From IMG/VR virus record IMGVR_UViG_3300032116_000009: 64,000 bases of DNA; one strand, given 5' to 3'. This DNA is from a virus. Lineage: Duplodnaviria; Caudoviricetes. Under the pieces are notes generated by a model, which saw nothing but the letters and a program-made list of their open reading frames with translations, was not told where the DNA came from and ran no database searches. This document shows positions 25,846 through 33,381 of this stretch, one piece after another. Within the stretch, counting starts at the first letter, position 1. Each line of letters starts with the position of its first letter. Both the position numbers and the translations under genes were made by a program.

Positions 25846-28079
25846 TCTACTACTTCTGTGATTGAACCTATACCAGTTGTAGGTTGATTATTGACAATAT
25901 ATTGTGGAATATATTGTAATACTGGATATACTTCAGCACCAACCCCAGTAGTTGTATTTATGGTCACTGGTGGAACAATTTTGAATTGTTGAGAACAATA
26001 TGAAACTGAGTTTATACCTATTATTGAACCATTAGTAGTTAAAATAGGACTATAAACGCAACTACCGACTAAGATAGTATCACCAGAAGTATATCCAAAT
26101 CCTGGAGATTCTACTACTAAAGAGGTTATAATTCCAACAGGTACGGTAGAAATTCCAGCAGAACTGGTTGTACCAACACCAACAGAACTAGTTGCACCTA
26201 TTCCAGTTCCAGAACCTACACTAGTGGTGTCTACTCCTACATTTACAATTGCCGATTGAAGATCTGTTAAACAATATCCAGATCCAGATTTTACAATGTA
26301 AATTGATTCTATTTGTCCATTTTTGATGGTTGATTTTGCTTCAGCACCAGATCCATAATTACTGTTATCAAGAATCGAAATAGAAGGTGGTCTACTATAT
26401 CCTTTACCAGCTTCTAGAACTTTTACTGTTAAAATAGAACCAGATGTAGGTTCTATAACAGGTATTGCTTTTGCACCTGTTCCATCACCATTTATAATTA
26501 CTTCTGGTGGAATACACTTATAGAATAATGTACCTGGTGGTATGGGTGGAAGATCTTTTTGATTCTTTGGATTTAATGCTTTGTTTCTACAATCTTTGAA
26601 TGGAGTGTCTGCAGATCCAAACGATGACAGTAAACCTATCCAATCATTGACTTCACCACCATAACCACCTAGTAAATCTATATTACCAACTACTTTTGCC
26701 CACTCATCAGTCTCTGGGAACTTTACTCCTTTAAATGGATCCCATGTTCCAGGAGTTTGGCATAGAAGTCCATCACAGTTTAAGAAACTAAGTAGTTGAG
26801 AAATTTCTTGAGCTGCAGTTTTTAAATATCCTGTGATTTCACCTACTCCACCAACTAACCAATCCAAACCAGAAAGAACTGTAGCTAAACTGTCATCGAC
26901 CATTTCCATAAGTTTGGAAATAAGAGAAGCAGTAAGTTCTTCTGCAGCACATCTTGGAATATTTGGAGTTTTTCCGATTAGTCCTGACAGTAATCCAGCA
27001 ATAAAATTTTCTATTGGTCCAAATAATTTTTCAAAGATACAAAAAATTATATCTAAAATTCTTTTAGCTGCTTCGGATAGTCTTAACCACTGAGGAAGTG
27101 GTATTGTTATCGAAAAAGCTCTAAATAAACACCCTGTTAACTTTATTATATTGTCACGCATCCCATTTATGATGAATTTCATAAGAGATGCTATCAATCT
27201 TGCGACTGATTTTATTTGTGAACCTATATCTACAATTTTATTTCTTATTGGGTCTATGAATCCAAAAATAGTCTTTTCTAAACCATTCACAAATCCAATG
27301 AATCCCTGTAAAGCACTAGTAATATTAGCTAATACATTTGTCAAACATCCGTTAGATCCAGACACTTCTCCTGCATCATTAAAAGCCTTTAAAAATGCAA
27401 GATTTCCTACATCCTTGTAAAAAAGTTCGTCAGAAGATGCACCAGGTATTTTTCTAAAACTTCCTGATGAATTTCCTGTATCTGGCGTAAGTGGATTAAA
27501 ATTAGGGGATAAATCTAATCCAGAATCTCCTATTCCAAATTCTGGATTTTGTGAAAATTTTATTGCTGATCCACTTTCAACTGTATTTTTTTCGGCTTCT
27601 TTTATGACTCCAGTTGCAGGAGCTTTTATTCTTGTTGCACTGGCCTTTAAATTACCTTGCATCCCAGTGAAAGGTTTAAAAGGTCCAGGTTCTTTTGCGT
27701 TTTCTACTGCTTTTGATCTATAAAAACAAGATACAACAACTGGTTGTTGACCTTCTTCGCCATCTAAGAAGAATCCTAAAACAGATTCTCCTCCCACTAT
27801 CATATGAGTTTTACCAAAACTACCTTGTCCTGGAGATCCTTCTGAAGCACTGGTTAAAATATGAGCCCAAGGTAGATCTTCATCGGGTAAAATATTTGCA
27901 TCAAAACTGTGATACCCTATTATTCGTACTTTACATCTATATGCCCAACTTGTATCTTTACTTTCATCTACTCTGGACTTTTCGGTACGCCAAACTTTCG
28001 GATCGGCAACTTGGCCGATCCACCAAACGAAACCATCTTTTCCGATAAAGTTAGATTTAAGTAAAGATTCTTCAATCAT
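25836..28079 (-). CDS. gp5: Baseplate hub/spike protein gp5 (OB-fold N-terminus, no recognisable lysozyme domain)
   Basis: FVWWIGQV...RCKVRIIGYH...LPWA...GESVLGFFLDG..QQPVV. Confidence 0.85.
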   Translation of the reverse strand: MIEESLLKSNFIGKDGFVWWIGQVADPKVWRTEKSRVDESKDTSWAYRCKVRIIGYHSFDANILPDEDLPWAHILTSASEGSPGQGSFGKTHMIVGGESVLGFFLDGEEGQQPVVVSCFYRSKAVENAKEPGPFKPFTGMQGNLKASATRIKAPATGVIKEAEKNTVESGSAIKFSQNPEFGIGDSGLDLSPNFNPLTPDTGNSSGSFRKIPGASSDELFYKDVGNLAFLKAFNDAGEVSGSNGCLTNVLANITSALQGFIGFVNGLEKTIFGFIDPIRNKIVDIGSQIKSVARLIASLMKFIINGMRDNIIKLTGCLFRAFSITIPLPQWLRLSEAAKRILDIIFCIFEKLFGPIENFIAGLLSGLIGKTPNIPRCAAEELTASLISKLMEMVDDSLATVLSGLDWLVGGVGEITGYLKTAAQEISQLLSFLNCDGLLCQTPGTWDPFKGVKFPETDEWAKVVGNIDLLGGYGGEVNDWIGLLSSFGSADTPFKDCRNKALNPKNQKDLPPIPPGTLFYKCIPPEVIINGDGTGAKAIPVIEPTSGSILTVKVLEAGKGYSRPPSISILDNSNYGSGAEAKSTIKNGQIESIYIVKSGSGYCLTDLQSAIVNVGVDTTSVGSGTGIGATSSVGVGTTSSAGISTVPVGIITSLVVESPGFGYTSGDTILVGSCVYSPILTTNGSIIGINSVSYCSQQFKIVPPVTINTTTGVGAEVYPVLQYIPQYIVNNQPTTGIGSITEVVECV

Positions 28080-28284
28080 CGTAAATTCTACATTCTAGAG
28101 CATTTGGATTAGAATCACAGAACAACTCTAATGGAGTTGGGTCATGACTATCTTCTGGATGATTCATTTTATAAGCTTCAAGAGCTTCTAATTCTTCTTC
28201 TGTATGTCTGCGTGATTGTGCAGAAATTAGTGGGTCGTCAAGGAGAGCTTTATCCTTGGCAATATGTGCATCTATGTTTTCCAT
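28072..28284 (-). CDS. cp12: Phage-type CP12 Calvin-cycle inhibitor
   Basis: RRH..EEL..L; C-terminal PLELFCDSNPNALECRIYDD. Confidence 0.92.
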   Translation of the reverse strand: MENIDAHIAKDKALLDDPLISAQSRRHTEEELEALEAYKMNHPEDSHDPTPLELFCDSNPNALECRIYDD

Positions 28285-29571: not shown

Positions 29572-31437
29572 TTATGTGGCTGATAGAGATGTTAGAAGTA
29601 TGTTCTTATATAAACTATTTAACACTTGACCTTCACTTGGCCCAGACACTACTACTGTTTGAGAACCTCCATTTGGCGTAGAAATAACGACAGGTTTTTG
29701 ATTACCATTTCCAGAAAGTATAGGAATCAAAGTTACTGATGATTGTGGCATATTATAAGATGGATATTGTTGGATTTGTTGAGGTATTACAACCAATTGT
29801 GTAGATGTTGGTTGTATCATCGAGTCCTGTACTTTAGAAATATTATTTTCATCATATTTCATTTGAGTTAGTTTTTCTTGCGGAAAAACATTTGTTTGCG
29901 CTTGGATTAAATTATTAGATGAAGATTGAGTGGATGGTTTGATAAACCTCTGACTCATTACTTGTGATTGCCTTTGGATAGTAGTTTGGTCTGTCGAGGT
30001 TTTATTCATCATATTTGGATTGGGGACAAGATCTTGCATCTCTCCAGATTCTTTTCCTTTTGGTTTTATTTCCCCTTTTGTTTGTGCAAGACCGGGTTTG
30101 GAATTTGGAGCTAAATGGCCAATCCAAGTTCTTGTTCCCTGAATATATCCACCAAGTCCTCCCCTTCCATAACCACCAAAATCTTTTCCAGTTGGACCTA
30201 TATTACTCAAAGGAACAGGTACTTTGGTTCCTTTTCTTACAAATACATCAATTGATTTTCCACTACCGCTATGAGTATGCGATCTTCTTGCGGCATCAAC
30301 ATAATTTCTCAATTCCGAATCACTATATTGTTTTGATGGTAACAAATCAATTCCTGGATTTAAATATACTGGAGATCCTTGTTTTAATAATGCTTTTACC
30401 ACTGTTGTAGTATCATTCACGACTTCAGAAACAGTTTCTCCCTGGAAATGTCCATGAACCCAACCAGTAGAATTTCTTACGTTTCCCGTTTCTCCAAATT
30501 CCGCATTACCAGATCCGTACTGAACTGGTCCACCAGTAGATTCATCCGTTGGAGGCGGCAATTCTTCCGGATCTAACTCTTCATCATATCCTGTTGGAGT
30601 ATCAGTGACCTCTGATAATTGTAAATTATAAGAAACTCTTTCAAATTGAAATACTACCCTTTCAAACTTATCTAAAACTTCTGGTAAAGATAATTTAGCA
30701 GCGGCTGCAGCTGCTTCTTTTTGTTTTGCCTCTTGTATTTTAAGTTTTGATTCTATTTTTTGTTTTGCATTTTTTTCTGTAGCTTCATAAGCTCTATCTG
30801 CAAAATATCCACCAGCAAAAGCCCCTAATCCACCTACAGCAGCACCTAAAACAAATCCCAATCCAGGAATAGGAACTAAACCTTGTCCAATCATTCCAGA
30901 TGTTATAGCACCCGCTAAAGCTCCACCAGCGGCTGCACCAGCAATTCCTCCAGCTGCAGATCCAGCAGCACCTGCAGCAGCTTTTCCAGTCGATTCTCCT
31001 TGAGAAATCCCCTGAGCAAAATCAAGTCCAGCCAAAAGTGGTGTCAAAACACCTAATGCTCTAACGCCTGGTATTTTTATTTTTGTACCAGATTGTAATG
31101 GTCTTCCTGCTTTACTATTTGGTTTTGGTAATTTTGATTTACCATCTTTTTTTCCGAAGAAATCTCCAACAAAAGATGCAGCATCTAAAGCCCCACTTGC
31201 AAGACCACTCAATAAGTTACCGGCACTTCCAAAACTTACAGCTACATTTGCTCCTAAAGCTTTCTTAAGTTTTCTTTGATTAAATTTTATTGCCTTTAAA
31301 TTATTCGTTTCCAGTTGCATGAAACGAACAAAATCTTGATAGGTAGTTTGAGACCTCTTCATTTGTGAAGTGGATCTATTTGTACTTACAATATTGTTTG
31401 CTGCATTCAGCAGCATTGAAGAGATTCCTTTAGCCAT
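29572..31437 (-). CDS. Tape-measure/hub-like protein with putative circularly permuted M23 peptidase domain
   Basis: Gly/Ala zipper region; STGWVHGHFQ precedes H..S.D.F...GT.V and WIGHL. Confidence 0.65.
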   Translation of the reverse strand: MAKGISSMLLNAANNIVSTNRSTSQMKRSQTTYQDFVRFMQLETNNLKAIKFNQRKLKKALGANVAVSFGSAGNLLSGLASGALDAASFVGDFFGKKDGKSKLPKPNSKAGRPLQSGTKIKIPGVRALGVLTPLLAGLDFAQGISQGESTGKAAAGAAGSAAGGIAGAAAGGALAGAITSGMIGQGLVPIPGLGFVLGAAVGGLGAFAGGYFADRAYEATEKNAKQKIESKLKIQEAKQKEAAAAAAKLSLPEVLDKFERVVFQFERVSYNLQLSEVTDTPTGYDEELDPEELPPPTDESTGGPVQYGSGNAEFGETGNVRNSTGWVHGHFQGETVSEVVNDTTTVVKALLKQGSPVYLNPGIDLLPSKQYSDSELRNYVDAARRSHTHSGSGKSIDVFVRKGTKVPVPLSNIGPTGKDFGGYGRGGLGGYIQGTRTWIGHLAPNSKPGLAQTKGEIKPKGKESGEMQDLVPNPNMMNKTSTDQTTIQRQSQVMSQRFIKPSTQSSSNNLIQAQTNVFPQEKLTQMKYDENNISKVQDSMIQPTSTQLVVIPQQIQQYPSYNMPQSSVTLIPILSGNGNQKPVVISTPNGGSQTVVVSGPSEGQVLNSLYKNILLTSLSAT

Positions 31438-33200
31438 TATCCGTCAACGATGTTGTAAACCATTTTAGAATATAATGTAAGGAAATTATCAGGATTTGTG
31501 GTGGGTAACATTGGAACAGTTTCTCCTCTAATGCCTGTTATAGGTGCTTGAGGTGGTTTTGCGGTTCCTTGTTGATTTCCACCTCCACCTTGCAAAGGAA
31601 GAATATTTACTTGTGGTTGCGATTGTGTTACAGGAACTTGTGCAACCTGTTGTGCAGATTGTTGTTGCATTTGTTGTTGTGCTGGAGCGGCAACAACTGC
31701 CGGTTTATTTCGTTGTTGAGTTGATGCGACTGGTTTATTACCACCTGATCTAATATTTCTCAATTCGGAAATAGTAGTTGCATATGTTTTGCCAGCAAGA
31801 TTTCTTCCAGAATATTGATCTTGATATGTTAAATCTGCTGTTCCGCCTAGTTTTGCAGCATTAATTTTTCCCTGAGGCAATCCTCTCCATGTTGGAGCAA
31901 GTTTTTGTAAAAATTGTTCTTCTGATATTTTACCGGATAAAAACTCATTTATTCCATGACTTGATCTTAATTCGTTTAGTGTTATTGCATCTTGAACTTC
32001 TGGTGTAAATTTTGTATTTGCATTGAATCCAGCTCTTTGCGCTCTTTCCAATAGATATTGGGGCATTTGTTGATATCTACCAATTGCTCCTCGTGCGTTT
32101 TTAGCCAACCACCCAATCGTTTGCTCTGTAGCCTTACCGGGAGTTTTTCCTGCACTTGTATTAAAACTATCATATCCTTCCGGACCTTGTTCGACTGAAG
32201 CAATAAGATCTAATACCCCCTTTTCTCCAGTCGTAGTAACACCAGGTGATCCAGAAACACCAGGTGCTCCAGGTGCTCCTGTAGCTCCTCGAGCTCCATC
32301 TTTCGCTTGTGTAGATGTGGATTTTCCTCCTCCAGGTTGTTGTTTTGATGGTCTCGTTGATAATGACTTTAGAACAGCAGAAAATCTATCTAATATTGCA
32401 TTAAACTTGTCTAGTAATGGTCCAGATAATCCTTCACCAGTTTCTCCCATTAACTGAGGTTGAACTCCACCGCCAACGTCTTGAAGAGCATTGGTCACCA
32501 TTGCTCCAGTGCCTGCACCAGCAAGAGCAGCACCACCCAACATTAATCCAGGGCGTCTTCTCATAGACCTTAATATTCCAGTGTTTCCCGCTCTTTTTAA
32601 TGGTGGGCCTGGAACTTTAACATCCAAATCTATTCCACCACCTCCTGCATTAGCTGTAGGTAGATTGGAAAGTTGATCGACTATTCTTATAATTGTTTGA
32701 CGAATGCTTTTAGCGACTTTGAAAGTTTCATCGAATACTTTCCTGAGTTCTACTAAACTTTCATTTAGACTTTTTATATTATTTGGATTTGCAAAAAATC
32801 TTATATATCCAATTGCTTTATCATATAAACTCAAGAAATTGGATAAAATTTTATTCGGAGCGTTTGCATCAATAGAATCTGTTTTAGAAATAAATCTATT
32901 TTGTAAATCTCCTACAGTTTTTTGAACAATCTGATTTACATTTTGAGTTATTGCTTGTACTCTATTCTCAACATTGTTTAAAATATTTGATGATAAAGTA
33001 TTAATGATCGAACCAAGATCTGGAACTTGTGGAGCAACTCCAGCAGTTCCTCTTTGAAATCCTACAATTTTGTTAGCAGCACTAGCAACCACAGAAGATC
33101 CAAGAGGAGAACCACCAGAAATAAAGTTCTGAACTGCTTCTGGTGTAACTCTACGTTCTCTAGCAATAACTCCTGGATTTAGTGGTGATTTAATTGCCAC
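31437..33200 (-). CDS. Tape-measure/hub-like protein with lambda-R/GH104-like lysozyme domain
   Basis: LDLIASVE..Y, AIGRYQ, FTPEVQD, LAPTWRGLP. Confidence 0.75.
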   Translation of the reverse strand: MAIKSPLNPGVIARERRVTPEAVQNFISGGSPLGSSVVASAANKIVGFQRGTAGVAPQVPDLGSIINTLSSNILNNVENRVQAITQNVNQIVQKTVGDLQNRFISKTDSIDANAPNKILSNFLSLYDKAIGYIRFFANPNNIKSLNESLVELRKVFDETFKVAKSIRQTIIRIVDQLSNLPTANAGGGGIDLDVKVPGPPLKRAGNTGILRSMRRRPGLMLGGAALAGAGTGAMVTNALQDVGGGVQPQLMGETGEGLSGPLLDKFNAILDRFSAVLKSLSTRPSKQQPGGGKSTSTQAKDGARGATGAPGAPGVSGSPGVTTTGEKGVLDLIASVEQGPEGYDSFNTSAGKTPGKATEQTIGWLAKNARGAIGRYQQMPQYLLERAQRAGFNANTKFTPEVQDAITLNELRSSHGINEFLSGKISEEQFLQKLAPTWRGLPQGKINAAKLGGTADLTYQDQYSGRNLAGKTYATTISELRNIRSGGNKPVASTQQRNKPAVVAAPAQQQMQQQSAQQVAQVPVTQSQPQVNILPLQGGGGNQQGTAKPPQAPITGIRGETVPMLPTTNPDNFLTLYSKMVYNIVDG

Positions 33201-33381
33201 GATTTGCCGCCTGTTGTGCCTTTAAGTTTTCTTCTTCAATATGTTGTTTCAATAGGGCAAGATAGATATCTCTTTCCCAAGGCATTAAATTTTCAACCTC
33301 AGTCAAAGAGTATTTATGGAACTGCATGAGAGCAAAATTAATACGATAATAGGCTTCCAAATCAATGTGAGCCATTGTCAA
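33190..33381 (-). CDS. gp51: Baseplate hub assembly catalyst
   Basis: YYRINFALMQFHKYSLTEVENLMPWERDIY. Confidence 0.8.
   Translation of the reverse strand: MTMAHIDLEAYYRINFALMQFHKYSLTEVENLMPWERDIYLALLKQHIEEENLKAQQAANRGN

Follow-up and report, generated by a model that had tools for sequence, protein, structure and literature searches.

The M23 peptidases (lysostaphin, LytM and the cell-division LytM factors) are among the most studied wall hydrolases, and databases define them by a fixed order of their motifs. Lysins are also embedded in tape measure and hub proteins of phage tails, as in the T4 gp29 slot, T5 pb2 and the TMP of mycobacteriophage TM4. Here we describe a protein of 621 amino acids, P0001 (29572..31437, minus strand), encoded in a stretch of viral DNA of 64,000 nucleotides (IMG/VR record IMGVR_UViG_3300032116_000009; this whole stretch is called the window), in which residues 308-449 (30091..30516, minus strand) form a conserved domain. 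We estimate at about 0.6 the probability that this domain is a circularly permuted, catalytically intact M23 (LytM/lysostaphin) zinc endopeptidase, an estimate based on profiles, motifs, secondary structure and genomic context and not on 3D superposition; most likely, the domain is an enzyme that cuts peptide cross-links of the host wall during infection. If this is true, it would be, to our knowledge, the first circular permutation found for the M23 family.

The domain resembles the canonical M23 enzymes (PF01551), such as S. aureus LytM (PDB 4ZYB), lysostaphin, V. cholerae ShyA and E. coli MepM, in its H(x)nD motif, its middle histidine of the T-x-Y-x-H-L type and its HxH motif followed by F-Q/E, as well as in the flanking D-x5-G-T-x-V and the G-x-T-G that precedes HxH, and the series of strands is the same once permuted. 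It differs from them in that the HxH block comes first, a two-helix linker stands at the canonical termini, n is 9 instead of 3, and neither a Pfam match nor a sequential structural match is obtained. The M15 LAS enzymes (E. coli MepK/YcbK, VanY and S-CREM1 gp47), which are wall peptidases of the virion or the periplasm, share with it a two-layer alpha/beta arrangement, a histidine at a helix end, an aspartate on a strand and a final histidine strand; however, the domain has neither the SGYR arginine nor the acid of H-x-D/E-x-x-H, and its G-x-T-G...HxHFQ block has no M15 counterpart. A precedent among peptidoglycan peptidases is provided by the circularly permuted NlpC/P60 families (YaeF/poxvirus G6R, LRAT-like), whose catalytic residues are swapped in order (PMC6403190), although their fold is unrelated and they are cysteine peptidases. 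They are the only permuted wall peptidases discussed in that 2019 hydrolase review, and the 2022 M23 review (PMC9662197) does not mention permutation. A search of the full-text literature for circular permutation together with M23/LytM or tape-measure proteins found no description, but its coverage was incomplete and absence is not proof.

With regard to virion proteins, the ejection protein gp28 of Cyanopodophage A4 (PDB 9K2V) contains a lytic transglycosylase and an M23 domain for wall penetration (PMC12002296). It resembles the present locus as a virion-carried, ejected cyanophage protein that pairs glycan- and peptide-cleaving modules, but it is an internal core protein of a podovirus with a canonical M23 domain, whereas P0001 would be a tail-lumen/hub protein of a myovirus. 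The 636-residue gp041 of S-SRM01, annotated as 'M23 family metallopeptidase', lies like P0001 between gp26/gp51 and the tail protein/gp5 genes, is of similar length and has its peptidase at the C-terminal side; in contrast, its M23 domain is in canonical order (Pfam E 4.8e-10) and shares the chain with a GH104-like domain, whereas the window splits these modules over two adjacent genes. P0001 is also similar to the tape measure and hub proteins of T4, T5 and TM4 in being long, partly hydrophobic and of low complexity with an embedded wall hydrolase, and differs from them in that two paralogue-like genes of similar size (587 and 621 codons) stand side by side.

Motif order and profile comparisons of residues 308-449

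The domain is supported by a block of conservation, an AlphaFold2 model and hhalign alignments after permutation; the original prediction had placed it at 30095-30530, which corresponds to residues ~303-448. Its first block, residues 308-332 (30442..30516, minus strand, as for the features below), corresponds to the C-terminal M23 motif (G-x-T-G ... H-x-H-F-Q) and forms strand beta1 of the model. A linker of helix, beta-hairpin and helix, assigned from the model DSSP, follows at residues 333-386 (30280..30441) and would join the canonical M23 C- and N-termini; its 54 residues agree with the predicted insert of about 55. The remainder, residues 387-449 (30091..30279), is equivalent to the N-terminal two thirds of M23 and carries H(x)nD, G-T-x-V, G-x-G and T-x-x-G-H-L. 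The motifs therefore run as HxH (328/330), H(x)9D (387/397) and middle histidine (441), and the canonical order H(x)nD, middle histidine, HxH is not found. All the strings on which the original prediction was built occur in the translation: A-E-F-G-E-T-G-N...G-W-V-H-G-H-F-Q at 312-332, S-H-T-H-S-G-S-G-K-S-I-D-V-F-V-R-K-G-T-K-V at 386-406, a glycine-rich G-G-Y-G / G-G-L-G-G-Y stretch at 421-431 and T-W-I-G-H-L at 437-442. Its 'HTH' motif held only for the first histidine, H387, which is invariant; the second, H389, is not conserved beyond close relatives, so that this element reduces to a single invariant histidine.

The family alignment, its columns either in native order or circularly permuted, was compared by hhalign with an M23 reference alignment of E. 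coli MepM and 26 viral M23 domains and with two further M23 alignments (three in total). In native order the score was 24.9 (P 0.0025, probability 12%), and it stayed at 24-25 across the M23 alignments (P 0.0025-0.004, probability 8-12%), a partial match that was reproduced with a second hhalign implementation. In permuted order the score reached 32.0 with 65 family sequences (P 1.2e-4, probability 54%) and 33.4 with 109 sequences (P 7.4e-5, probability 62%), and the two other M23 alignments gave 31.5-32.6 (P about 1e-4, probability 57-58%). The P values of the permuted comparisons ranged overall from 7e-5 to 1.3e-4, and moving the cut point, with 16 positions tried from residue 34 to 94, left the result unchanged. 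When the AlphaFold-derived secondary structure of both models was added, the permuted match rose to 77% and the native one stood at 10%. As controls, column-shuffled M23 alignments gave maximum scores of 22.6 and 21.0 (30 and 60 shuffles, respectively), and reversed alignments gave about 15. Swapping the two halves, the check that had been proposed together with the prediction, thus raised the M23 match from a probability of 8-12% to one of 54-62%, or 77% with secondary structure.

The permuted alignment places S-I-D-V-F-V-R-K-G-T-K-V on 'GiDi..p.GTpV', G-G-L-G-G-Y-I-Q-G-T-R-T-W-I-G-H-L on 'GyG..V.I.H..g..T.Y.HL' and A-E-F-G-E-T-G-N...G-W-V-H-G-H-F-Q on 'Ia..G.TG.s..pHLHfE'. The two blocks do not behave alike in this respect: residues 387-449 match the M23 columns in native order too (hhalign P 0.0016-0.003), whereas residues 308-332 align with the 'G.TG.s..pHLHfE' columns only when the alignment is permuted. 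The linker has no counterpart in the M23 profile alignments.

These alignments assign a putative role to five residues, whose codons were confirmed directly on the DNA. H328 (30454..30456), aligned to the first histidine of HLHFE, is the first histidine of HxH and the proposed catalytic counterpart of LytM H291; H330 (30448..30450), aligned to the second histidine of HLHFE, would be a zinc ligand equivalent to LytM H293. H387 (30277..30279), the histidine of H(x)nD with n=9, is proposed as the zinc ligand corresponding to LytM H210 and is aligned across a six-residue loop insertion, and D397 (30247..30249), the aspartate of the same motif and proposed zinc ligand (LytM D214), was aligned to the invariant aspartate of 'GiDi' in every comparison. 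Finally, H441 (30115..30117), aligned to the histidine of 'T.Y.HL', is the proposed second catalytic histidine (LytM H260). The roles of the LytM residues are described in PMC4594094 and PMC9662197. By the LytM alignment, zinc would be held by H387, D397 and H330, and water would be activated by H328 and H441. The zinc-ligand and catalytic motifs of M23 are therefore all represented, but rotated, and the altered His-Asp spacing that had been pointed out is borne out by the six extra loop residues between H387 and D397. In the 2022 M23 review, the motif is given as H(x)nD and n is variable (PMC9662197). The distance from the aspartate to the middle histidine is 44 residues, compared with 43 in the canonical viral M23 reference and 43-46 in M23.

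Across the 109 aligned sequences, G315, G318, H328, H387, D397, P407, G427 and H441 never vary, and the conservation of H330 is 99%. No other part of the 621-residue protein is conserved as well as this block, and the observation goes far beyond chance. A word-index search retrieved 56 proteins, all but two of them 63-100% identical over the block, with diverging flanks. An exhaustive phmmer search of 1.84 billion representatives yielded 80 clusters (50% identity), 71 of them below E 1e-10, and in all 80 the block is embedded in proteins of 150-3200 amino acids.

Standard family models do not recognise this domain, as the original prediction had anticipated. Pfam yielded nothing for P0001 or its residues 290-460 with an E limit of 10, PF01551 (M23) was matched by none of 65 family members with an E limit of 1, and NCBIfam and PDB sequence searches with the protein, the domain and the 65-member profile gave no match and no M23 chain. 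The only library match of the domain was to PHROG 34252, 'endolysin' (E 4.5e-10). Standard models would miss it because its catalytic motifs come in rotated order.

Predicted structure and competing explanations

The AlphaFold2 model, built from the 65-sequence alignment, is a single compact domain (pLDDT 90.2, pTM 0.86). Its DSSP elements, in a model numbering equal to the residue number minus 299, are a strand at 27-33, a helix at 37-53, strands at 58-60 and 64-66, a helix at 74-87, and strands at 96-102, 111-116, 129-133 and 139-143. A canonical viral M23 domain modelled with the same pipeline shows the series D-strand, GT.V, two long strands, HL strand, hairpin arm and HxH strand, and once rotated the strands of the permuted-domain model correspond to this series one-to-one. 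M23 is an all-beta fold, and the two long helices at first seemed to argue against it; this objection was dropped, since in the permuted alignment these helices are the linker that lacks an M23 counterpart. Under the permuted arrangement the new termini lie inside a single canonical M23 beta-hairpin ('V..G..V..Gq.Ig') and are therefore expected to be adjacent, an arrangement that would fit a domain projecting as a loop from a thread-like, extended protein.

With this model, Foldseek found nothing in the PDB (best E 0.38), and a shape search of the ESM Atlas gave TM values of 0.41 or less. The canonical viral M23 model, used as a control, retrieved with Foldseek 66 solved M23 chains with E down to 2e-10; therefore, the missing M23 matches of the permuted model are not a failure of the pipeline, and they reflect rearrangement, divergence or a real structural difference. 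Among predicted viral structures (BFVD), relatives were found in S-T4 ('putative muramidase', E 2e-7, TMq 0.70), S-CAM1 (E 5e-6) and S-WAM2 (E 0.012).

Several of the results speak against an M23 assignment. Foldseek and VIA-align, both of them sequential, listed no M23 chain for the permuted model, and although such aligners could give a half match at best, even the contiguous half from the aspartate to the HL strand did not surface. The hhalign probabilities of 54-77% are suggestive rather than conclusive. At the level of single sequences, a hidden Markov model (HMM) built from M23 gave at most 12.5 bits with individual members of the permuted family, a weak score, yet above that of reversed decoys. 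The canonical M23 domain of S-SRM01 was tried as a close unpermuted relative and rejected, as it scored 4.9 bits with the HMM of the permuted family, a value that is itself unfavourable. In addition, the canonical histidine position four residues before the aspartate is occupied by a glycine, G393, and the histidine that would substitute for it, H387, lies at a helix end.

Could the domain instead be a metallohydrolase of other descent? It might be a non-homologous alpha/beta (ferredoxin-like) enzyme in which a LAS-type His/Asp/His site arose by convergence, or one nearer to M15 (MepK/VanY), and would then still be a virion wall peptidase; we regard this as unlikely. A bolder version, which we find quite unlikely, is a new ferredoxin-like scaffold with an independently assembled lysostaphin-type His/Asp/His plus two-His site, that is, an unrecognised metallopeptidase fold present across the tail tape-measure/baseplate proteins of aquatic phages. 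The motifs are indeed co-linear with those of M15 (strand, helix ending in S-x-H, loop, D on a strand, G-G-x-G-x-Y, final histidine strand), the corresponding slot of S-CREM1 holds an M15 (VanY) domain, and a language-model feature search of the Atlas returned Peptidase_M15_3/M15_2 clusters at 0.82-0.85, which count as leads only. A homologue search with MepK gave only proteins 81-100% identical to it, and viral M15 and M23 sets were used instead. With MepK plus 27 viral M15_3 sequences, hhalign scored 21.6 (P 0.0096, probability 4%), the maximum of 30 column shuffles being 16.9. Across runs, however, the M15 match is weak (score 19-21.6, P 0.01-0.03, probability 1.7-4.3%) and leaves the final histidine unaligned, whereas the M23 match after permutation is better by a factor of about 100 in P value and covers all five catalytic residues; the permuted family scored 17 with the M15 alignment. 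Moreover, G-x-T-G...H-x-H-F-Q and D-x-x-x-x-x-G-T-x-V are hallmarks of M23 that M15 does not have, and the helices responsible for the ferredoxin-like look are exactly the segment without an M23 counterpart, which fits a linker. HUH-endonuclease and AEP/palm readings of an HxH strand on a ferredoxin-like fold were also considered and rejected, as there is no conserved tyrosine or acidic triad.

A module without catalytic activity seems very unlikely to us. Such a module could be a metal-binding or oligomerisation plug of a tape-measure/hub protein, with histidine clusters holding an ion on the tail axis, much as HxH motifs bind an axial iron in the spike proteins of P2 and phi92; another possibility is a degenerate LytM-type regulator, binding peptidoglycan or activating another hydrolase. 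Non-catalytic LytM domains are in fact common, the translations of E. coli EnvC, NlpD and YgeR lacking the HxxxD and HxH histidines and the LytM domain of EnvC being an amidase activator according to PDB titles, and the glycine at the canonical HxxxD histidine position, together with the Amidase_3 domain of three family members, would fit a regulator. However, degenerate LytM factors have lost their catalytic residues, whereas four histidines and one aspartate are 99-100% conserved here in 109 sequences down to ~30% identity, the pattern expected of an active site. Furthermore, the domain occurs together with glycan-cleaving domains, as peptidase modules do, and replaces canonical M23 or M15 in its slot.

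Host protein, gene neighbourhood and distribution

The assignment of the host protein as tape-measure-like, made in the original prediction, agrees both with PHROG matches and with the position of the gene in the tail/baseplate module. The N-terminal ~250 residues of P0001 (matches over 41-248) resemble phrog_794, tail length tape measure protein (E 8e-7), and phrog_1047, tail-associated lysin. Pfam gave no tape-measure match for P0001 itself, and TMP_3 is present in 6 of its 48 full-length relatives. A Gly/Ala-rich hydrophobic segment read off the translation, residues ~150-213 (30799..30990, minus strand), lies inside the PHROG tape-measure match. The open reading frame (ORF) at 30015-30410 on the plus strand, which overlaps the 621-residue gene, has no support and is probably spurious.

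By synteny and its matches to Kyanoviridae, the window comes from a T4-like cyanophage. The minus-strand gene order is a tail-tube-like gene, the gp26 hub gene, the gene for a protein of 587 amino acids, that of P0001, a 425-residue 'tail protein', CP12 and a gp5-like hub/lysozyme, and full-length homologues of P0001 stand in the same order in IMG/VR contigs. The upstream partner of P0001, the 587-residue P0130 (31437..33200, minus strand), carries a lambda-lysozyme/GH104-like lytic domain at residues ~327-469 (nt 31794-32222), with tblastn matches to cyanophage proteins, one of them annotated GH104; Pfam and PHROGs did not detect this domain. The C-terminal tails of P0130 and P0001 are alike, as if the two were paralogous tape-measure-like proteins with one lytic module each. 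Relatives of ~1000 residues appear, on visual inspection of the alignment, to combine the two modules in a single chain; among them, P0052 (1004 residues) shows P0130-like 'LDLIASVE...GRYQQ' motifs upstream of its permuted domain.

In the same slot of other Kyanoviridae, S-SRM01 encodes a GH104-like domain and a canonical, Pfam-detectable M23 domain in one chain, and S-CREM1 a GH104-like domain together with VanY (M15). Because S-SRM01 has M23, S-CREM1 has VanY and the window has the permuted domain, the slot holds a glycan-cleaving module and an exchangeable peptidase module, the permuted domain being the putative peptidase here. In Synechococcus phage ACG-2014i the slot is occupied by a 961-residue protein that carries the domain (41% identity) along with a SleB-like Hydrolase_2 domain, and in S-CAM1 by a protein of 1036 residues with a more canonical T-G-S-T...H-x-H-F-E motif. 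Pfam searches of the 48 full-length family members revealed TMP_3 (the six mentioned above), Phage_lysozyme2 (4), Amidase_3 (3), Phage_lysozyme (2), GH19 (2) and Hydrolase_2 (2); lysozyme-type domains stand beside the permuted domain in 10 of the 48, and canonical M23 never co-occurs with it in this set. The gp041 of S-SRM01 (L168:4281-6191) has at residues ~440-540 a canonical-order M23 domain without HxxxD, its only upstream histidines being an H-H pair ~16 residues before the aspartate; M23 domains of cyanophage tails may therefore often have a long H(x)nD spacing.

Of 77 related IMG/VR loci, 39 carry gp26 on the upstream side, 45 carry the tail protein on the downstream side and 38 carry gp5; the position between gp26 and the tail protein/CP12/gp5 genes recurs in about 40-45 of them. 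In about 24 IMG/VR loci the domain is found in ORFs of 1100-2000 amino acids, presumably tape-measure proteins of other phages, and these loci have no T4-like neighbours, which suggests that the domain moved between unrelated tail types.

A circularly permuted M23 peptidase at this position could act as follows. The end segment of canonical M23 (G-x-T-G...H-x-H-F-Q) would have been placed first, the helix-hairpin-helix linker of 54 residues would bridge the old C-terminus to the old N-terminus, and the H(x)nD block, the G-T-x-V strand and the T-x-x-G-H-L strand would follow. The 621-residue protein, whose gene occupies the tape-measure/hub slot flanked by gp26 and the gp27-like/gp5 genes, may exit the virion via the tail tube at infection. 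The peptidase that it carries would then cut the peptide cross-links of the cyanobacterial wall, possibly D-Ala-mDAP by analogy with Gram-negative M23 enzymes, while the glycan strands would be the target of the lytic-transglycosylase-like domain encoded by the upstream paralogous gene, and the Gly/Ala-rich hydrophobic segment might subsequently engage the membrane. Metal binding, bond specificity and ejection through the tail are all inferred here.

Since Pfam and NCBIfam do not recognise a branch with rotated motif order, virion-associated peptidases are probably under-annotated in cyanophages and other aquatic phages. At least 80 clusters (50% identity) are concerned, and another three cultured cyanophages whose match is by predicted structure only. 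This argues for permutation-aware searches in the annotation of tape-measure proteins. If the permutation is real, the domain would offer a case study of an enzyme re-wired for insertion into a thread-like tail protein, and a new lysin module for cyanobacterial walls.

Three further observations were made in these loci. In 2 of the 48 full-length family members, a eukaryotic-type protein kinase domain (Pkinase, best E 5.7e-13) is encoded in the same polypeptide as the permuted domain. An ORF of 63 amino acids (33190-33381, minus strand) with no Pfam match lies between gp26 and the 587-residue gene, the position at which S-SRM01 and S-CREM1 annotate a 57-residue 'baseplate hub assembly catalyst' (gp51-like). 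Finally, the gene for CP12, a Calvin-cycle regulator (28072-28284, minus strand; Pfam E 3.3e-13), is located inside the baseplate module, between the genes of the 425-residue tail protein and gp5, and the same placement is found in 36 of the 77 related IMG/VR loci and in ACG-2014i.

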